IMG/VR virus record: IMGVR_UViG_2740892229_000001
Location: 1 to 7,118 of that record
Strand: one strand, 5' to 3'
Length of the DNA stretch: 7,118 nt
Source: a virus
Taxonomy: Duplodnaviria > Heunggongvirae > Uroviricota > Caudoviricetes
Program-made: the position numbers and the translations under genes
Shown here: piece after piece, positions 1-7,118 of the stretch
Numbering within the stretch: the first letter of the stretch is position 1
Layout: each line of letters starts with the position of its first letter
The notes under the pieces: generated by a model
What the model was told of the DNA's origin: nothing
Databases searched by the model: none
The model's input: the letters and a program-made list of their open reading frames with translations, nothing else

Positions 1-54
1 GTCGCTCGTAACTAAACAGGAGCCGACTTGTTCTGATTATTGGAAATCTTCTTT

Positions 55-81
55 GCCCTCCAGTGTGAGGGCGATTTTTTT
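55..81 (+). terminator. Rho-independent terminator-like hairpin upstream of the first gene
   Basis: Stem GCCCTC (55-60) / GAGGGC (67-72) with 6-nt loop CAGTGT, followed by GATTTTTTT with a 7-T run (75-81). It sits immediately before the RBS GGAGGA (85-90) of the 94..1062 gene. Confidence 0.55.
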
Positions 82-93
82 GACGGAGGATAT

Positions 94-1062
94 ATGAGTG
101 AAGTAACAGATTTAGTTGTTATTGAAAAAGCAAATGCAATGACTGTATTTCAGTCTGCCGACCAGATTGAAGAAATCCTTCAAAAGGTTGAACGTGAAGT
201 TATGTCCTTTGTGCCTGATATCACAACGGCAAAGGGCAGAAAGGAGATCGCTTCTCTGGCGTATAAAGTTGCGCAGACGAAAACATATCTCGATGGTCTT
301 GGCAAAGACCTTGTTGCTGAACTGAAGGAAATTCCAAAGCTAATTGATGCCAACCGCAAGACAGTGCGTGATCGACTTGATGAGCTGAAAGCCAAGGCGC
401 GCCAGCCTCTTACTGATTATGAGGATGAACAGGCACGGATTAAAGCCGAAGAAGAAGCTAAGGCAGCAGCTGAAGCTCTCGCAAAGCAAATTGAGTCTGA
501 CCATGAAATAGCTATTTTGATGGATCGCGAATTTGACCGCCAAAGAGAAGAGGCAAGACTCAAAGCGGAGCAGGAAAAGCGAGAGCATGAAGAACGCTTA
601 AAAAGAGAAGCTGAAGAGAAAGCCAGAGCAGAAGCCGAAGCAAAGGCAAAAGCCGAAATTGAAGCAGCAGCAAGGCGAGAAGCAGAAGCTAAGGCCGCAG
701 CGGAACGTGCAGAGCGTGAACGCATTGAAGCCGAGCAACGAGCACAGCGCGAAGCAAAAGAGGCAGCAGAACGAGCTGAAAGAGAAAAGCAGGCAGCAAT
801 TGAAGCAGAACGCAGAAAAGCACAGGAGGAGGCTGAACGAATCCGTCGCGAGGCTGAAGCAAAAGAGCAAGCCAGAATAGCAGAAGAAAAAAGAATCAAG
901 GACGAAGAAGAGCGTAGAGCAAAGGATAAAGCTCACCGGAAAGAAGTAAATAACAAAATACTTGCTGACCTTATCAAGGTTGGTGCATCAGAAGATGTTG
1001 CTAAAAATATCATAACAGCCATCGTAAAAGGCGAAGTATTCGCAACAAAAATAACCTACTAA
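94..1062 (+). CDS. Hypothetical phage coiled-coil protein (globular N-terminus, long E/A/K/R-rich repeat region, short C-terminal domain)
   Basis: ORF-track frame 40..1062; preferred start is ATG 94 with RBS GGAGGA at 85-90, since the TTG start at 40 would read through the terminator hairpin at 55-81. The middle third is low-complexity (AEAEAKAKAE / REAEAKAAAERAERE type heptads). No family confidently recognised. Confidence 0.6.
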   Translation: MSEVTDLVVIEKANAMTVFQSADQIEEILQKVEREVMSFVPDITTAKGRKEIASLAYKVAQTKTYLDGLGKDLVAELKEIPKLIDANRKTVRDRLDELKAKARQPLTDYEDEQARIKAEEEAKAAAEALAKQIESDHEIAILMDREFDRQREEARLKAEQEKREHEERLKREAEEKARAEAEAKAKAEIEAAARREAEAKAAAERAERERIEAEQRAQREAKEAAERAEREKQAAIEAERRKAQEEAERIRREAEAKEQARIAEEKRIKDEEERRAKDKAHRKEVNNKILADLIKVGASEDVAKNIITAIVKGEVFATKITY

Positions 1063-1086
1063 TAAAACCAACATAAGGAACCACCC

Positions 1087-1218
1087 ATGATTTACGCAAT
1101 CGCGGGAGGCGCTCGCATGGGTGCCTTCCAACTAAATGAATCTTTACTTGAACGAATCACCCGTAAATTACGTGACGGATGGAAAAGAGTTGAGGTCTTA
1201 TTATGCGCAATGAAATAG
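1087..1218 (+). CDS. Small hypothetical protein (43 aa)
   Basis: ATG 1087 preceded by AAGGA (1075-1079) at 7-nt spacing; translation MIYAIAGGARMGAFQLNESLLERITRKLRDGWKRVEVLLCAMK; stop TAG 1216-1218. Below the ORF-track size cut-off; hand-translated. Confidence 0.4.
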   Translation: MIYAIAGGARMGAFQLNESLLERITRKLRDGWKRVEVLLCAMK

Positions 1219-1355
1219 CCATCAATCACCAGATACTTCGTGCTGCACAAAACAAAGCAGTAATAGCCAGATTTATTGGTGATTCCAAAATGTGGCTTGA
1301 AGCAAATAAAGCGATGAAATCAGCTATCAACCTTCCATGGTATCGCAGGAAATGA
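1203..1355 (+). CDS. Small hypothetical protein (50 aa)
   Basis: ATG 1203 preceded by GAGGT (1192-1196); translation MRNEIAINHQILRAAQNKAVIARFIGDSKMWLEANKAMKSAINLPWYRRK; stop TGA 1353-1355. Overlaps the previous small ORF by 16 nt. Hand-translated. Confidence 0.4.
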   Translation: MRNEIAINHQILRAAQNKAVIARFIGDSKMWLEANKAMKSAINLPWYRRK

Positions 1356-1522
1356 GTTTTACAGATAACTGGTCAGACGAAGAATTCATTCGTCAGATGA
1401 AAGAATTAATCGGTAACGAAGGAGATATTCATGTCACTTGCAACCACAGTGAAGGAGAGCAAGTTACAGAGGCGCATGTACACGCAGCAGGCGTTAATGT
1501 ATCGCCAGAAGGGAGATCGTGA
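1352..1522 (+). CDS. Hypothetical small protein (56 aa), uncertain
   Basis: Internal ATG 1352 of ORF-track ORF 1337..1522, forming an ATGA overlap with the stop of the 1203..1355 ORF. The Shine-Dalgarno is poorly spaced (AGGA 2-3 nt from the ATG), the C-terminal half is H/V/G-rich, and it overlaps 1431..1601 out of frame for 92 nt. Confidence 0.25.
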   Translation: MSFTDNWSDEEFIRQMKELIGNEGDIHVTCNHSEGEQVTEAHVHAAGVNVSPEGRS

Positions 1523-1601
1523 AGGTGTTCGCGTATTTTTGAATGCGGCAAAGACTGAAGTATTAAATCAGCGTTATTTCCTTGGGCCATGTCCATTCTG
1601 A
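1431..1601 (+). CDS. Small hypothetical protein (56 aa)
   Basis: Strong RBS GAAGGAG (1418-1424) 6 nt before ATG 1431; translation MSLATTVKESKLQRRMYTQQALMYRQKGDREGVRVFLNAAKTEVLNQRYFLGPCPF; stop TGA 1599-1601, 8 nt before the SSAP start. Not in the ORF track (below size cut-off); hand-translated. Confidence 0.5.
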   Translation: MSLATTVKESKLQRRMYTQQALMYRQKGDREGVRVFLNAAKTEVLNQRYFLGPCPF

Positions 1602-1609
1602 GGTGAATT

Positions 1610-2317
1610 ATGGATTTGAACAAATTCGATGAGCCATTCAGCCCTGAAGATATCGAATGGCGAATACAGCAAAGCGGTAAAACACGCGATGGCAAGGTGT
1701 GGGCTATGGTGCTGGCTTATGTCACGAACCGGGCAATCATGAAGCGCCTGGACGATGTTTGCGGCAAAGCAGGATGGCGCAATGAATACCGCGATATTCC
1801 CAACAACGGCGGAGTTGAATGCGGCATATCAATCAAGATTGATTCCGAATGGGTAACCAAATGGGATGCTGCTGAAAACACGCAGGTAGAAGCCGTCAAA
1901 GGTGGTCGTTCCGGTGCAATGAAGCGCGCTGCCGTTCAGTGGGGAATCGGTCGGTATCTGTATAACCTTGAGGAAGGTTTCGCACAAACATCTCTCGATA
2001 AAAAGCAGGGGTGGCACAGGGCAAAACTGAAGGATGGAACAGGGTTTTACTGGCTCCCTCCAACGCTGCCCGGCTGGGCAATCCCAGCATCAGATAACAA
2101 ACCATCACCAGAAAATACCAACCAGAAATCTCCATCGGTTGACTGCGAACAAATCCTGAAAGACTTCAGCGATTATGCATCGAAAGAAACTGATAAGAAA
2201 AAACTCATCGAGCGTTATCAGCGTGACTGGCAATTAATGGCTGGAAACGAGGAGGCGCAGGCTAAATGCGTTCAGGTAATGAACATCAGAGTTAACGAGC
2301 TAAAACAGGCGGCATAA
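1610..2317 (+). CDS. Rad52-superfamily single-strand annealing protein (Sak/Erf-like phage recombinase)
   Basis: 235-aa ORF with RBS GAGGTG at 1600-1605. Contains the segment KGGRSGAMKRAAVQWGIGRYLY, which matches my recollection of the conserved DNA-binding core of Rad52/Sak-type annealases. Its position directly upstream of ssb is typical of phage recombination modules. Family assignment is from memory, not a search. Confidence 0.75.
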   Translation: MDLNKFDEPFSPEDIEWRIQQSGKTRDGKVWAMVLAYVTNRAIMKRLDDVCGKAGWRNEYRDIPNNGGVECGISIKIDSEWVTKWDAAENTQVEAVKGGRSGAMKRAAVQWGIGRYLYNLEEGFAQTSLDKKQGWHRAKLKDGTGFYWLPPTLPGWAIPASDNKPSPENTNQKSPSVDCEQILKDFSDYASKETDKKKLIERYQRDWQLMAGNEEAQAKCVQVMNIRVNELKQAA

Positions 2318-2791
2318 ATGGCAAGCAGAGGCGTAAATAAGGTGATCATTATTGGTCGCCTTGGGCATGATCCAGAAATCAGATATTCACCATCAGGAAC
2401 GGCATTTGCAAACCTTACAGTTGCTACGTCAGAACAATGGCGTGATAAGCAAACTGGAGAGCAAAAGGAGCAGACGGAGTGGCACCGCGTGGTAATGAGC
2501 GGGAAACTGGCAGAAATTGCCAGCGAATATCTGCGAAAAGGCTCTGAGGTTTATCTTGAAGGCAAATTGCGGACAAGAAAATGGCAGGATCAAAGCGGAC
2601 AGGATCGGTTCACTACTGAAGTCATCGTGGGCGTTGGTGGAACTATGCAAATGATTGGTGGCAAGCAAGGAGGCAATGAACAGTCTTCACCTCAGCGAAA
2701 TAACGGTCAGCAACAAAGACAGCAATCTCAGCAGCATGGGAATCACAGCGAACCACCTATGAACTTCGACGATTCGGATATTCCGTTCTAG
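2318..2791 (+). CDS. ssb: Single-stranded DNA-binding protein (phage-encoded SSB)
   Basis: 157 aa. The N-terminal OB fold aligns closely to E. coli SSB ([70 protein letters not shown]), followed by a G/Q-rich linker and the acidic tail [12 protein letters not shown]. Start ATG 2318 directly abuts the SSAP stop (TAAATG). Confidence 0.95.
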
Positions 2792-2800
2792 GAGATGAAT

Positions 2801-3280
2801 ATGAAAATCTGCTCAAGATGCCATCAACAGAAGGAAGAAAGGGACTTTCAAATCAGAAGAGCATCCAGAGATGGATTAACTGCCGCTTGCCGGGCTTGCC
2901 TGGCTGAATACGACAAAGAACGCGCTGGATTGCCACATCGAGTATCAGCAAGGAGAGAATATCAATCATCGGAACGCGGAAGAGAACGGTGTAACGCAGC
3001 CAAAAAGCGGTTCATTCAGAGCAACCCATGGAAAAGAAAAGCCCACATCATTGTGGGTAATTTTTTGCGCGACGGTAAGCTAATCCGACCACCACAATGT
3101 GAGTGCTGCGGATCAGAATGTAAACCACAGGCGCACCACTGCGACTACAGCAAACCAACCGATGTGATGTGGCTCTGCAAGTCATGTCATGTCGAGTGGC
3201 ACAAACATAACAAACCTATCTACCCAGACGAGGAACCAGTAACTCTCCCCTTCCCTCGTCACGCTATTCACGCAATTTAA
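2801..3280 (+). CDS. Cys-rich HNH-like zinc-finger protein (putative HNH endonuclease-family protein)
   Basis: ORF-track frame 2795..3280; ATG 2801 preferred because AGGAG (2790-2794) is then 6 nt upstream. The C-terminal segment CECCGSECKPQAHHCDYSKPTDVMWLCKSCHVEWH fits the HNH beta-beta-alpha-metal pattern (CxxC ... HH ... D ... LCxxCH..H). The N-terminus has a second Cys cluster (CSRCH ... CRAC). Confidence 0.5.
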   Translation: MKICSRCHQQKEERDFQIRRASRDGLTAACRACLAEYDKERAGLPHRVSARREYQSSERGRERCNAAKKRFIQSNPWKRKAHIIVGNFLRDGKLIRPPQCECCGSECKPQAHHCDYSKPTDVMWLCKSCHVEWHKHNKPIYPDEEPVTLPFPRHAIHAI

Positions 3281-3293
3281 TCAGGAGAAAATC

Positions 3294-3587
3294 ATGCCAG
3301 CGCCTCTGTATGGTGCGGATGACCCGCGCCGCTGTTCCGGCAATTCCGTATCGGAGGTGCTGGATAAATTCAGAAAAAACTACGACCTGATAATGTCGCT
3401 ACCGCAGGAAACGAAAGAGGAAAAGGAATTTCGCCATTGTATATGGCTTGCAGAGAAAGAAGAACGCGAGCGAATTTACCAGACATCAATCCGACCATTC
3501 CGCAAAGCCACATATACCCACTTCCCTGAAATTGACCCGCGCCTGCGTAATTACCGCTCACGCTATGGCGCTATCAGTAATGACTGA
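3294..3587 (+). CDS. Hypothetical protein (97 aa)
   Basis: ORF-track ORF; RBS AGGAG (3283-3287) 6 nt before ATG 3294. Charged and hydrophilic; no family recognised. Confidence 0.6.
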
Positions 3588-3597
3588 GGAATTTACC

Positions 3598-3765
3598 ATG
3601 AGAGGACTTGCATACAATCCAGGAATTCTTCCGGCAGAAATGATTATTCGCCAACGCGTAAGGCCAATGCCATCGAGAGAGGAATTGCTTAAGAGAAATA
3701 GTTTCGGTTCTGTTAACGACAACAAATATCTGAATGCGATGTGGCGCAAAGGAGGCAACCAGTGA
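3598..3765 (+). CDS. Small hypothetical protein (55 aa)
   Basis: Internal ATG 3598 of ORF-track frame 3448..3765, chosen because it follows the upstream stop (3585-3587) and has GAGGA (3586-3590) at 7-nt spacing. Translation [55 protein letters not shown]. Confidence 0.5.
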
Positions 3766-4460
3766 GCAAGATTGACTATCAGGTACTGCGTGAGGCAGCA
3801 GTAGCAATTGAAACAGTAGCAACGCCTCAAAAATTGCTGGCATTTCGTATGAAAGTCACACCTCAGGTTGTGCTGGCATTGTTGGATGAACGGGAAAGAA
3901 ACCAGCAATACATCAAACGCCGCGACCAGGAGAACGAGGATATTGCGCTTACGGTTGGGAGGCTGCGCGTTGAGCTGGAAGGCAAAGACAGCAAAATAGC
4001 CAATCTTACCGCCGAACGCGATGCTCTTCGCGAAGGTGAGATAGGCGACGCCAGGCATAGCAACACACGGGCCGCAGCTGATATCTACTTCCAACTGGTC
4101 GAGGAGTGCGAAATTCCTGCTGGCGGATCTCTGGTCGAGTACGTTGACGATATGCGCGAGAAGCTGGAAGCCGCAGAGAAGCGCATTGCAGAACTGGAAG
4201 CACGGGAAATAAAACCAGCCAAAGGCGAAGTTCTTGTCGTTGTCTCTGGTTTTACTGGTTGCGGGAAAAGCGCCATTGCCGGGGAAATAGAAATTGCGAT
4301 GAAAGCTATTGGTGTGCCGGTTCAATGGACTAATGGCGATGCAGAAAAGCATATGACCGGCGCTGACTGGCTGACAGCGATTGAGATGTACAAACCAACT
4401 GTGCGCATCGTGGAAGTTAATGTGCCACGCGCCGCTGGCATTCGCATCAAAGGAGAGTGA
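3762..4460 (+). CDS. Coiled-coil phage protein, possibly Ead/Ea22-like, with a short alpha/beta C-terminal domain
   Basis: ORF-track frame 3741..4460; GTG 3762 preferred because AAAGGAGG (3748-3755) lies 6 nt upstream and it gives a GTGA overlap with the upstream stop. N-terminal [12 protein letters not shown] plus coiled-coil stretches ([39 protein letters not shown]) resemble, from memory, the Ea22 family of lambdoid accessory proteins. C-terminus carries a Walker-A-like string GFTGCGKS. Confidence 0.45.
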
Positions 4461-4461
4461 T

Positions 4462-4671
4462 ATGGCTATTGCCGCAAGTTACACCATGCATCTCTATTGT
4501 GACTGCCGCCAGTGTACGGAAGGTGTATATCCAGTGCCAGACTTCGGTGAGTATATCGGTACGTCATGGTCTGGTTGTGCAAAAGAGGCGCGCAAGGATG
4601 GCTGGCGAATAAGCAAAGACAAAACGCGTGCTTTTGCGCCCGGGCATAAAGTTTTGAGGATTAACAAATGA
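4462..4671 (+). CDS. Small Cys-cluster protein (69 aa), possible zinc-ribbon
   Basis: Internal ATG 4462 of ORF-track frame 4381..4671; AGGAG (4451-4455) 6 nt upstream; starts 1 nt after the upstream stop. Translation MAIAASYTMHLYCDCRQCTEG...SGCAKE...; CxCxxC plus a distal Cys and His. Confidence 0.5.
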   Translation: MAIAASYTMHLYCDCRQCTEGVYPVPDFGEYIGTSWSGCAKEARKDGWRISKDKTRAFAPGHKVLRINK

Positions 4672-5588
4672 CCACTATTACCAAAGAGCGACTGCTGACA
4701 ATCAAGCAGTGGCGCGAAACATACGGACCTGGTAGCAACGTTGTACTGCCAGCAGAAGAAGCGGAAGAACTGGCACGGATTGCTCTGGCAGCGCTGGAAG
4801 CTGAACCTGTTCTGTATCAGTCCTGCACTCGCCCCACTTGGAATAGCGGTGTTCCGTGGACGGAATGGAAAGAACGTAGTCGTGAGGGCTACGAAAACGA
4901 TTTGCGCTTTACAGACACGCCTGACCATGCCGGTTGGATAAACAAATGCCGAAAACTATATACCACTCCGCCAGTTCCTGTAATACAGGCTGATGTCGCG
5001 CAGGCAATTGAAAAACTCAAACGGAAATTAGTGGAATGCAATCGCTATAACTACTGCGCAGATGCAGTTAAGGGCGTTGAGTATGCCTGCCACGCTGCCA
5101 TGCTTCAGGGTAGCCAACCTGTAAGCCAAACTTACAAGTTTCCAGTTAATACACCTTGCCAGGATGCGCCAGCCCATATCTGGCTGCAAACAGCTGGAGT
5201 ATGGCCAGAAGATGGCGAGTTAAGCGAATTAACGTGGTGCAGCCACAATCAGCACCATGATGACACGCTATATGTTCGAGCTGACCTTGTGAATGGCAAC
5301 TATCCGGTAACTCCGGATGGTTGGATAAGCTGTAGTGAGCGAATGCCTGTAATTGGCGAGCTAAATTGGAGAACTAGTTTTCCTTTGCTGATTACGTGTG
5401 AGATCGGCGTTATACCTGCTTATTACGGCTTTGTAAGCATTAATGGTGAAAGACATTATGGCTTTATGGAGAGCTTTAAATACGGAGATGAGCACGGCAA
5501 CCACCCTCAAACTAATGAATATGGTCTGATTAGCAATGTAACCCACTGGATGCCGCTGCCAGAACCGCCGGAGCAGGATGGTGAATGA
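4668..5588 (+). CDS. DUF551-domain phage protein
   Basis: 306 aa; ATG 4668 gives an ATGA overlap with the upstream stop; GAGGA (4656-4660) 7 nt upstream. The C-terminal ~90 aa end in ...NVTHWMPLPEPPEQDGE, matching my recollection of the DUF551 signature (W-x-PLPEPP) common in lambdoid prophage accessory regions. The N-terminal ~200 aa is not recognised. Confidence 0.6.
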   Translation: MTTITKERLLTIKQWRETYGPGSNVVLPAEEAEELARIALAALEAEPVLYQSCTRPTWNSGVPWTEWKERSREGYENDLRFTDTPDHAGWINKCRKLYTTPPVPVIQADVAQAIEKLKRKLVECNRYNYCADAVKGVEYACHAAMLQGSQPVSQTYKFPVNTPCQDAPAHIWLQTAGVWPEDGELSELTWCSHNQHHDDTLYVRADLVNGNYPVTPDGWISCSERMPVIGELNWRTSFPLLITCEIGVIPAYYGFVSINGERHYGFMESFKYGDEHGNHPQTNEYGLISNVTHWMPLPEPPEQDGE

Positions 5589-5674
5589 TGCCGCCAGTTA
5601 AAGTTGTGATTATCACTTTGGTGATGATAGTGATTGCGAGAATCATGTCTGGTGAAATTGGGTGGATATGGTAA
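5588..5674 (+). CDS. Putative 28-aa hydrophobic micro-protein (single transmembrane helix)
   Basis: ATG 5588 overlaps the DUF551 stop (TGATG; an in-frame ATG at 5585 is also possible). Translation MPPVKVVIITLVMIVIARIMSGEIGWIW; stop TAA 5672-5674. Hand-translated; not in the ORF track. Confidence 0.3.
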   Translation: MPPVKVVIITLVMIVIARIMSGEIGWIW

Positions 5675-5721
5675 TGGCTAAGGCAGCAGCAGAGCGCAAC
5701 TAACAATCCTCGCACTAGCGG

Positions 5722-5734
5722 GGATTTCTTTTAT
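5722..5734. repeat. Left copy of a 13-bp direct repeat GGATTTCTTTTAT flanking the 5746..6546 gene
   Basis: Exact 13-mer GGATTTCTTTTAT at 5722-5734, repeated at 6550-6562; both copies are preceded by GCG(G). Confidence 0.5.
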
Positions 5735-5745
5735 ATGGGGATAAT

Positions 5746-6546
5746 ATGACCATCCACTTTCACGGCAGCCCAATATGGGGGGATGAGCATGCCCCTACAG
5801 ATATGCTGATTAAAGCCCTTTACCGTGATGGTGGGGCTTTTGTTTCATTTGCCAGACCAGAGCAGATGAAAAAGATTGCCATGTTCCCTTGTGATATACG
5901 CCTTGATAACGGCGCTTTTAGCGACTGGATGAAAGCATTAAAGAAAGGCACTCCGGTAGAGTGGAGTAAGAGGCGAGCAAAATTCTACGACTTTGTTGGG
6001 AAGTGGTTCAGCAGAATTGAATGGTTTCTTATACCTGACGTTATCGAAGGGACAGAGGCAGAAAACGACGAGCAGATTGAGTTGGTTCCTGATTGGCTAA
6101 AATCAAAAGCGGTTCCGGTCTGGCATACCGACGAATCAATTGAACGTCTTTTACGCCTTTCTGGCAAATTTGAATGGGTGGCGATTGGATGCTGCGGCCC
6201 ACACAGGCACATACGCTCTAAATGGTGGGAACAGAGAATGGATGAAGTTTTCACTGAGCTTTATATCAATCGTAATTTGAAAGTGAAAATTCATGGTCTT
6301 CGAATGCTCGACGTGAGAGTTCTTGGTATGTATCCGTTCGCCAGTGCGGATTCTACTAATGTTGCTGTTAACGTACCGAAGACAGAGAAGCGATTTCCTG
6401 AGATTACTGACAAACTGGCACGTACAGCTGTACTTCGCGCTGCTATTGAAAAGGTGCACCCGCCATCGATATCAGCATGGGTAGACAGAAAGATGAGAGA
6501 GCCGGCGCAAGCCGGTTTTTTATTTGAATTCACCGACGCCGCTTAA
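5746..6546 (+). CDS. TGT-fold (tRNA-guanine transglycosylase-like) protein, candidate DpdA-like DNA 7-deazaguanine transglycosylase
   Basis: 266-aa ORF, clearly coding. Motifs occur in the same order as the queuine-TGT barrel as I remember it: HFHGSPIWG (cf. TPCFMPVGT), FPCDIRLDNGAFS with Asp at 5905-5907 (cf. ILTDSGGFQ), FLIPDVIEG with Asp at 6037-6039 (cf. MIFDEC), WVAIGCCG from 6187 (cf. GYAVGGL), and a later ASADSTNV. The C-terminal CxCxxC...H zinc module of canonical TGT is absent. Functional call is inference only. Confidence 0.45.
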   Translation: MTIHFHGSPIWGDEHAPTDMLIKALYRDGGAFVSFARPEQMKKIAMFPCDIRLDNGAFSDWMKALKKGTPVEWSKRRAKFYDFVGKWFSRIEWFLIPDVIEGTEAENDEQIELVPDWLKSKAVPVWHTDESIERLLRLSGKFEWVAIGCCGPHRHIRSKWWEQRMDEVFTELYINRNLKVKIHGLRMLDVRVLGMYPFASADSTNVAVNVPKTEKRFPEITDKLARTAVLRAAIEKVHPPSISAWVDRKMREPAQAGFLFEFTDAA

Positions 6547-6549
6547 TGC

Positions 6550-6562
6550 GGATTTCTTTTAT
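6550..6562. repeat. Right copy of the 13-bp direct repeat GGATTTCTTTTAT
   Basis: Exact 13-mer at 6550-6562, 4 nt after the stop of the 5746..6546 gene and immediately before the terminator hairpin. Confidence 0.5.
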
Positions 6563-6565
6563 CTG

Positions 6566-6590
6566 AACTCGCTACGGCGAGTTTTGTTTT
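6566..6590 (+). terminator. Rho-independent terminator after the TGT-like gene
   Basis: Stem AACTCGC (6566-6572) / GCGAGTT (6577-6583), loop TACG, followed by TTGTTTT (6584-6590). Confidence 0.6.
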
Positions 6591-6603
6591 ATGGAGATGA
6601 TAA

Positions 6604-6771
6604 ATGCACTTCCGAGTCACAGGTGAATGGAATGGAGAGCCATTCAACAGAGTTATCGAAGCAGAGAACATCAACGACTGCTATGACCACTGGATGATAT
6701 GGGCGCAGATAGCACATGCAGAAGTAACCAATATTCGAATTGAAGAACTGAAAGAACACCAAGCCGCCTGA
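6604..6771 (+). CDS. Small hypothetical protein (55 aa) between the moron and xis
   Basis: RBS GGAGA (6593-6597) 6 nt before ATG 6604; translation MHFRVTGEWNGEPFNRVIEAENINDCYDHWMIWAQIAHAEVTNIRIEELKEHQAA; stop TGA 6769-6771. Hand-translated; not in the ORF track. Confidence 0.5.
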   Translation: MHFRVTGEWNGEPFNRVIEAENINDCYDHWMIWAQIAHAEVTNIRIEELKEHQAA

Positions 6772-6784
6772 TGGCGGTTTTTTC
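6763..6784 (+). terminator. Rho-independent terminator overlapping the stop of the 55-aa gene
   Basis: Stem GCCGCC (6763-6768) / GGCGG (6773-6777), loop TGAT containing the stop codon, followed by TTTTTT (6778-6783). Confidence 0.55.
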
Positions 6785-6828
6785 TTGCCTGATTTACAGG
6801 TTCGATTCCCTATTCGGAGATAGCACTC

Positions 6829-7029
6829 ATGCAACACGAACTACAGCCTGATTCACTGGTTGATTTGAAATTCATCATGGCCGATACTGGCTTCGGTAAG
6901 ACCTTCATCTATGACCGGATTAAGTCCGGCGACCTGCCTAAAGCCAAAGTTATCCACGGGCGAGCAAGATGGTTATATCGTGATCATTGTGAATTCAAAA
7001 ATAAGCTCTTAAGCCGCGCCAATGGGTAA
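6829..7029 (+). CDS. xis: AlpA-family excisionase / DNA-binding protein (Xis-like)
   Basis: 66 aa; RBS GGAGA (6816-6820). LVDLKFIMADTGFGKTFIYDRIKSGDLPKAKVIHGRARWLYRDHCEF fits the AlpA/Vis-type winged-helix pattern (helix with TG, IY..IK.G.LPK, GR..W...D). Position at the 3' end of a lambdoid early-left operon, with a further ORF opening at 7022 that overlaps its stop. Confidence 0.7.
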   Translation: MQHELQPDSLVDLKFIMADTGFGKTFIYDRIKSGDLPKAKVIHGRARWLYRDHCEFKNKLLSRANG

Positions 7030-7118
7030 AATAGCGGGTAAAATATTTCTCACATCTAAAAAACACCATTCCAATCAATCCCCTGCCGCGTCAAGTAGAT
7101 GTCTGCAGGGGACACCAT

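Follow-up and report, generated by a model that had tools for sequence, protein, structure and literature searches.

Phage DpdA enzymes exchange guanine in DNA for a 7-deazaguanine base. A 7,118-nt stretch of caudoviricete DNA (IMG/VR record IMGVR_UViG_2740892229_000001, positions 1 to 7,118; hereafter the window) raises the question of whether one gene of this kind, standing alone in a lambdoid prophage, encodes such an enzyme, and on what that enzyme would act. The gene and its putative ribosome-binding signal are:

5746..6546, + strand: DpdA-family (phage DNA-guanine transglycosylase-like) gene, 266 aa, ATG start; orthologue of HK106 gp29
5737..5741, + strand: Shine-Dalgarno-like GGGGA, 4 nt 5' of the DpdA-like ATG, read from the sequence

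The gene family, its DpdA assignment and the solitary state of the gene are already known, since a near-identical orthologue from phage HK106 has been published as DpdA and is annotated in RefSeq. That orthologue, gp29 (YP_007151699), is 98.5% identical to the window protein (four amino-acid differences) and is the same gene, placed alike among lambdoid phage genes (ea/DUF551-type on one side, xis-int on the other) and likewise unaccompanied by phage preQ0 genes; the window copy lies in a prophage at the dsdC/torI end, whereas gp29 lies in the HK106 genome. Supplementary Data 1 of the 2019 catalogue lists gp29 as a DpdA that is the sole deazaguanine gene of its phage, and HK106 accordingly falls in the third group of that study, the DpdA-only phages, which are the largest DpdA-encoding group (76 of 182 viruses) (Hutinet 2019, PMC6884629). 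In the network of the same study, singleton DpdAs of gamma-proteobacterial phages stood apart as their own cluster, with a function that "will require more studies" (Hutinet 2019, PMC6884629). DpdA-only phages are also the least understood DpdA group. The only paper on prophage or solitary DpdAs that we found in the literature since 2019 concerns Pantoea phage MED16, and we found no published test of HK106 or of any lambdoid or P22-like prophage copy. Our analysis adds that the closest relatives outside E. coli usually have a two-gene Vut-DpdA module, that the family includes fusions to QueD and to DNA methyltransferases and shares a conserved catalytic set across about 1900 clusters, and that the cassette is exactly delimited and is matched by empty sites.

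Family, fold and kinship of the protein

The family assignment is carried by profile comparisons. Within PHROGs, which are clusters built on remote homology, the window protein falls in phrog_887, "queuine tRNA-ribosyltransferase" (E 4.8e-102), together with Salmonella phage 7-11 gp032 and MS1 gp6 (E 6e-68), a Dp-1-type DpdA encoded last in a QueC-QueD-QueE-FolE-Vut operon. An exhaustive profile search returned 1914 cluster representatives at 50% identity, indicating a large family. A profile of 99 members matched both MS1 gp6 (hhalign 98.8%, E 1.4e-16) and the DpdA of phage CAjan (hhalign 98.9%, E 3.4e-17, 172 columns), whose deletion abolishes all dPreQ0 in CAjan DNA (Hutinet 2019, PMC6884629). 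The gene is a real and well-conserved member of the phage DpdA family, in its singleton cluster.

HMMER-level searches were blank: nothing relevant was found with the protein against Pfam, NCBIfam and PADLOC models, with 33 or 99 family members against Pfam, or in PDB sequences (phmmer and hmmsearch, using the protein and the 33-member and 99-member profiles). These blanks are uninformative, since the validated CAjan DpdA and its homologues likewise carry no Pfam label. A search against the Pfam TGT model (PF01702), suggested in an earlier note on this sequence, gave no match and could not have worked, CAjan DpdA being Pfam-blank too.

By fold, the protein has the TGT-like (beta/alpha)8 barrel of phage DpdAs and belongs to the TGT superfamily, but it is not a canonical TGT, because it has neither a match to the family model nor a zinc site. 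E. coli Tgt scores 560 bits on PF01702 and has a C302/C304/C307/H333 zinc site, whereas PF01702 matched neither the window protein nor any of the 99 family members. The earlier note had remarked on the missing zinc subdomain, and rightly so: Cys occurs only at positions 49, 149 and 150, there is no CxCxxC...H arrangement, and 64 residues follow D202. Comparison by hhalign of either family profile with E. coli Tgt yielded 0.4-0.8%, no detectable relation, in a test of a profile against one sequence rather than against a diverse TGT alignment; this null agrees with the literature, in which phage DpdAs have been noted not to group with TGTs. For the MED16 DpdA, 42% identical to the window protein, its authors reported an HHpred score of 99.2% to the TGT of T. 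maritima. Foldseek against the PDB discriminated weakly, with Cap10 first, generic TIM barrels interleaved and the bacterial DpdA structure (7UI4) tenth. Scores to Cap10, DpdA and ArcTGT were all similar, as expected within one superfamily.

These comparisons bear on the name under which the gene is filed in RefSeq and PHROGs. A queuine tRNA-ribosyltransferase would alter the queuosine-type modification of host or phage tRNA during infection and leave DNA alone, and both the superfamily fold and an active-site chemistry that would serve RNA too are compatible with this role. We nevertheless regard it as distinctly unlikely: the name was inherited from superfamily similarity and not from any test, the profile matches to E. 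coli Tgt and PF01702 fail, and the missing zinc subdomain is the one that stabilizes nucleic-acid binding in TGT/QTRT1. Furthermore, the nearest relatives of known function are DNA-modifying DpdAs, some family members are fused to DNA methyltransferases, E. coli already has Tgt, and the window holds no tRNA gene.

Among enzymes of the superfamily with other acceptors, Cap10 of type IV CBASS is encoded in an operon with Cap9 (QueC-like) and a CD-NTase. A Cap10-like protein would handle protein-attached 7-deazaguanine or another non-nucleic-acid acceptor in signalling or defence rather than modify DNA. This is very improbable for the window protein, whose sequence-profile similarity is to phage DpdA; Cap9 and CD-NTase genes are absent from the window and 7 kb on either side, the wider prophage likewise lacks them, and PADLOC gave no match. 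Without either partner, the gene is not a Cap10.

Nor is it part of a bacterial Dpd system. Bacterial DpdA (PDB 7UI4, PF23859) is a 413-aa protein that contains a structural Zn site and Ins8, an insertion of 128 residues, and that depends on the DpdB ATPase; the window protein has no Ins8, Zn site or PADLOC match, PF23859 matched neither it nor any of the 99 family members, and no dpdB- or dpdC-like gene occurs in the annotated prophage region. The absence of PF23859, of the Ins8/Zn subdomain and of DpdB/C excludes the gene from that system, and its resemblance to bacterial DpdA is structural only.

The phage enzymes are closer. DpdA1 of CAjan and Dp-1/MS1 has a homologous barrel core and the same D...F, H, H and D motifs, and it too lacks the TGT zinc motif. 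Identity to the window protein is only about 17-25%, though, and DpdA1 is some 40 residues longer, with about 100 residues past the nucleophile Asp as against 64. DpdA1 genes also lie within FolE-QueD-QueE-QueC(-Vut) clusters, and about 0.3-30% of G is exchanged in the DNA of their phages, whereas the window gene is solitary. Two solitary DpdAs from phages with analysed DNA belong to the same family: gp032 of Salmonella phage 7-11 shares 58% identity with the window protein, and the MED16 DpdA 42% over 96% of the protein; both identities extend over at least 89% of the length, and both proteins belong to phrog_887. Like the window phage, 7-11 and MED16 have no preQ0 synthesis genes; they differ in being lytic phages of other hosts, whereas the window gene belongs to a temperate lambdoid prophage of E. 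coli.

A candidate outside the superfamily was also considered. The H4-x-H6 pair where strand 1 ends, His and Asp residues on later strands, and weak TatD_DNase matches in three family members had prompted a reading as a TatD/amidohydrolase-type metal hydrolase, which was rejected: hhalign to E. coli TatD gave 1.5%, and the HxH of such enzymes is not conserved, H4 occurring in only 53 of the 99 members. More generally, it is barely credible that the TGT-like motifs are coincidental and the protein is some unrelated TIM-barrel enzyme, such as an aldolase-like protein or a metal-dependent nuclease of the TatD/amidohydrolase type, given profile matches to two DpdAs at E 1e-16 to 3e-17 and family associations with Vut and QueD that are specific to 7-deazaguanine metabolism.

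Predicted active site and reaction

The TGT reading in the earlier note had started from five sequence strings, and these are present in the order it gave: HFHGSPIWG (residues 4-12), LDNGAFS (53-59), IPDV (96-99), AIGCCG (146-151) and ASADSTNV (199-206). Their conservation across the 99-sequence family alignment, which reaches down to about 25% identity, argues that they are not chance. D98, H127, H183 and D202 are invariant in it, and D54, A57, P97, G148, L185, R186 and S203 are conserved in at least 92% of sequences. The putative catalytic positions are encoded at:

5905..5919, + strand: D54-N55-G56-A57-F58 codons, predicted general acid/base Asp and base-stacking Phe, end of beta3
6034..6039, + strand: P97-D98 codons, predicted base-recognition Asp after beta4
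6124..6126, + strand: H127 codon (VPVWH), invariant His at the end of beta5, 99/99 members
6292..6303, + strand: H183-G184-L185-R186 codons, strand beta7; H183 99/99, L185 92/99, R186 93/99
6349..6354, + strand: D202-S203 codons (SADS), predicted catalytic nucleophile Asp, end of beta8

LDNGAF, in which D54, A57 and F/Y58 are each found in 98 of 99 members, has LDSGAF (CAjan DpdA) and VDSSAY (MS1 DpdA) as its aligned counterparts, and its position (end of beta3, D..xxx..F) suggests that D54 and F58 are equivalent to D95 and F99 of Salmonella Montevideo DpdA (SmDpdA). D98 (99/99) aligns with the D of SLDVIPG in MS1 DpdA and may be the analogue of SmDpdA D130, while H127, aligned with H132 of CAjan (LPCFH) and H138 of MS1 (IPVFH), would correspond to SmDpdA H181. 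Around H183 the motif KIHG lines up with KLHAF in CAjan and KVHGF in MS1; H183 is likely the hydrogen-bond partner of the nucleophile, by analogy with Cap10, in which the H226/D248 pair has a spacing resembling that of H183/D202. The putative nucleophile D202 (99/99; S203 98/99) aligns with CAjan D206 (SCDSS) and MS1 D217 (SADST), and its apparent counterpart in SmDpdA is D256, which inactivates that enzyme when changed from D to A. The equivalences to D95, D130, D256 and H181 of 7UI4 were drawn from strand positions and not from superposition. Three active-site Asp residues and the conserved His of phage DpdAs were found both in the 99-member alignment and in the CAjan and MS1 motifs. Profile homology to phage DpdAs, the barrel fold and these conserved residues together support the TGT-superfamily/DpdA reading of the 266-aa protein.

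The protein is probably a minimal phage DpdA, a TGT-superfamily (beta/alpha)8-barrel DNA-guanine transglycosylase that acts on phage DNA by base exchange. We infer its DNA substrate, the identity of the base, the timing of expression and the biological benefit along the following lines. The enzyme would be made from the N-antiterminated pL transcript on induction or infection, would bind replicated duplex phage DNA and would flip a target G into the mouth of the barrel. Attack of D202 on C1' of the target deoxyguanosine, with acid catalysis by D54, would displace guanine, and a free 7-deazaguanine base (preQ0 or the amide ADG) would resolve the covalent intermediate. The earlier note had found no QueC, QueD or QueE partner, and tblastn bears this out for the window; tblastn and annotation together detected no QueC, QueD, QueE, FolE or Vut homologue in the window, the 21-kb surrounding prophage or the HK106 region. 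With no preQ0 synthesis genes and no transporter of its own, the phage must rely on the host for the base, presumably through the queuosine pathway (FolE-QueD-QueE-QueC) or through salvage by host YhhQ.

The expected product, by analogy with two solitary-DpdA phages, would be sparse and probably motif-specific dADG/dPreQ0, at tens to hundreds per million nt, rather than bulk replacement. Phage 7-11 DNA contains dADG at 50 per 1e6 nt, about 0.02% of G (Hutinet 2019, PMC6884629). MED16, which encodes dpdA alone, has 354 dADG per 1e6 nt (~0.13% of G) and trace dPreQ0. Both dADG values were obtained by LC-MS/MS, with no knock-out tying gene to modification in either phage, and the MED16 authors saw a minimal effect of dADG on the restriction enzymes tried. 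In mycobacteriophage Orion, a singleton DpdA in a host with no preQ0 pathway was accompanied by no modification (Hutinet 2019, PMC6884629), which fits dependence on the host.

A discrete cassette in the early-left operon

The window corresponds to a lambdoid prophage of E. coli 2013C-4991 that adjoins dsdC and has a TorI excisionase gene at its end, differing from it by one base. All window genes lie on the + strand, downstream of cI-N-cIII-kil, and encode a Rad52-family annealing protein, SSB, an Abc2-type anti-RecBCD protein, Ead/Ea22, DUF551, the DpdA-like protein, a 55-aa lambda-p35-like ORF and TorI. The window is thus an N-antiterminated early-left (pL) operon, and the early-left placement given in the earlier note holds for the DpdA-like gene.

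Further features of this region were recorded. A 340-aa ORF (40-1062, + strand) has a long, charged, Ala/Glu/Lys/Arg-rich stretch of coiled-coil type and no Pfam family, and is annotated in some genomes as "cell envelope biogenesis protein TolA" or "coiled-coil domain-containing protein". A 161-aa Cys/His-rich ORF (2795-3280, + strand), flanked by ssb and the anti-RecBCD gene, contains several CxxC motifs as well as CECCG, HHC and CKSCH; it has no Pfam match and no RefSeq CDS (a gap at 9791-10294 of the surrounding prophage locus, L012), and may be an unannotated zinc-finger or HNH-like protein. ARAGORN found no tRNA genes in the window. At about 6800-6811, just upstream of torI, is GGTTCGATTCCC, a sequence typical of tRNA T-arms, which may be a relic of a tRNA-associated attachment region.

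At a nucleotide identity of at least 95%, the DpdA-like gene occurs in 82 of 5426 complete E. coli genomes, always on the chromosome and mostly annotated as "hypothetical protein". E. coli 2013C-4991 (NZ_CP027355.1) has a second, identical copy in another prophage next to sbcB. The two lambdoid prophages, at sbcB and dsdC (413136-413936 and 5305519-5312635), encode identical proteins in their immunity and early-left regions (the cI-like protein, N, Rad52, SSB and others share WP accessions), which include the two copies of the DpdA-like gene.

Several sequence elements frame the gene or lie within it:

5705..5737, + strand: upstream terminator-like hairpin (5705-5726) and T-tract, overlapping the left repeat copy
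5722-5737, + strand: left direct-repeat copy (16 nt), GGATTTCTTTTAT(A/C)TG, which with the right copy brackets the RBS and ORF
5777..5782, + strand: G6 homopolymer in codons 11-13; one G less gives a frameshift
6496..6521, + strand: terminator-like GC hairpin and T-run (40-nt element 6485-6524) within the last codons of the ORF
6550..6565, + strand: right direct-repeat copy, GGATTTCTTTTAT(C)TG, 15/16 identical to the left; right cassette boundary

Both repeat copies lie 3' of a small GC hairpin, to which they supply a T-tract, so that each resembles a terminator. We searched E. coli genomes with a synthetic empty-site query, made of the left flank through a single repeat copy joined to the right flank, and 18 genomes matched over at least 80% of its length, mostly in one alignment piece. 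The upstream hairpin and one repeat copy are also found at the empty sites, and the junction in NCTC8623 (L093 500-600), the sole one aligned base by base, consists of exactly one repeat copy. The bracketing repeat and the empty sites with a single copy show that the gene forms a module of 828 bp, which is gained or lost at a short repeat located between the DUF551 and lambda-p35-like genes. A second 40-nt terminator-like element (6747-6786), past the next small ORF, is 70% like that at 6485-6524; both have a GC hairpin and T6.

The earlier note had called the gene a moron, which is only partly right: the cassette is discrete and has empty sites, but we found no promoter-like site upstream on the + strand, so this is not a classical promoter-gene-terminator moron. 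Expression should therefore depend on N-antiterminated pL transcription, that is, on lytic growth. This matters for the alternative that the gene serves lysogenic conversion or defence, being expressed from the prophage to mark the host chromosome or to hamper incoming deazaguanine-modified phages rather than to protect its own phage. An accessory cassette at the xis/att end, gained and lost between related prophages, sits where conversion genes typically lie; bacterial DpdA supplies the modification side of a restriction-modification system; and modification in solitary-DpdA phages is too low to block the common restriction enzymes tried. Even so, such a role appears unlikely, because a gene with no promoter-like site and a terminator-like hairpin just upstream should be silent in a repressed lysogen, there is no DpdD-K-like restriction partner nearby, and homologues also occur in the strictly lytic phages 7-11 and MED16.

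Purifying selection acts on the gene, as shown by a dN/dS of 0.12 against HK106 and 0.06 against an 87%-identical homologue, with synonymous sites saturated in the more distant pairs. The sole difference between the window and NZ_CP027355.1 is G6 versus G5 at 5777-5782; the G5 record has a frameshift at codon 12, and PGAP starts a 256-aa product there at an out-of-frame ATG (5775). In the other 2013C-4991 copy the run is G6. The difference could be a sequencing error or an on/off (inactivation) site of slippage.

Relatives and the possible use of a sparse mark

A neighbourhood survey of 79 IMG/VR loci, together with gene fusions in the family and one further phage neighbourhood, ties the family to 7-deazaguanine bases and to a DNA substrate through independent associations with Vut, QueD and DNA methyltransferases. 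All 29 loci with E. coli-type copies (at least 98% identity) have a solitary gene, and none has a Vut_1 gene. In 20 of 25 loci at 57-87% identity (L039-L063, L078), a gene for a Vut_1 (YhhQ-family) membrane protein ends exactly at the start of the DpdA-like gene. This Vut_1 is of the same short type as CAjan gp41 (30% identity, E 4e-6), which sits inside the CAjan preQ0 cluster, and it matches NCBIfam queuosine-precursor transporter models weakly, below cutoff. YhhQ itself has been cited as a preQ0 transporter (Hutinet 2019, PMC6884629). A search upstream of the gene in the window found no decayed Vut transporter, and the HK106-type lineage appears to have dispensed with it.

Fusions point in the same direction. 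A 76%-identical homologue (P0006), in the same lambdoid position just upstream of int and after a Vut_1 gene, carries a C-terminal Dam-type DNA methyltransferase (L009 5540-7383; also L010, L011 and L047). Another family member (P0125) has an N-terminal D12-class N6-adenine DNA methyltransferase fused to the DpdA-like domain, and a third (P0196) is a QueD (PTPS)::DpdA-like fusion; in Caulobacter phage DMCA a QueD gene directly precedes the homologue. The window's own prophage has a separate Dam-type methyltransferase in its nin region (L012 621-1148), 49% identical to the fused domain of P0006. None of the 79 loci showed a QueC, QueE or FolE gene within 8 kb, suggesting that the family as a whole relies on a host-made or imported precursor; in the published scheme, it is the lack of 7-deazaguanine synthesis and transport genes that defines the "singleton" class (Hutinet 2019, PMC6884629). 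Homologues at ~35% identity have ead/Ea22-like genes as neighbours in temperate phages of the P22-like and Stx-converting kinds (BTP1, SPN3UB, Stx1a_EH2115; H146, H159-H160, H154-H155), so solitary DpdA-like genes are widespread in accessory early regions of enterobacterial temperate phages.

What remains of interest, and it is modest, is the role of sparse dADG in solitary-DpdA phages. More speculatively, and with considerable doubt, the solitary DpdAs of temperate enterobacterial phages might lay down a sparse, motif-specific dADG/dPreQ0 mark that serves some purpose other than bulk anti-restriction. Such a mark could allow evasion of one defence system, act as an epigenetic signal for replication or packaging, or label host DNA on induction, with precursors drawn from host or gut-derived queuosine. 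In that case the empty sites and the frameshift-prone G6 would be signs of a trade-off against host glycosylases active on deazaguanine DNA; a preprint on glycosylase defence deals with host enzymes attacking modified DNA, not with the DpdA-like gene. The HK106-type gene is a convenient system for these questions, since it belongs to a tractable lambdoid phage of E. coli K-12-type hosts for which queC, queD, queF, tgt and yhhQ mutants exist: it would allow one to ask whether one gene and the host queuosine pathway suffice, which base is inserted, and what use a sparse modification has.
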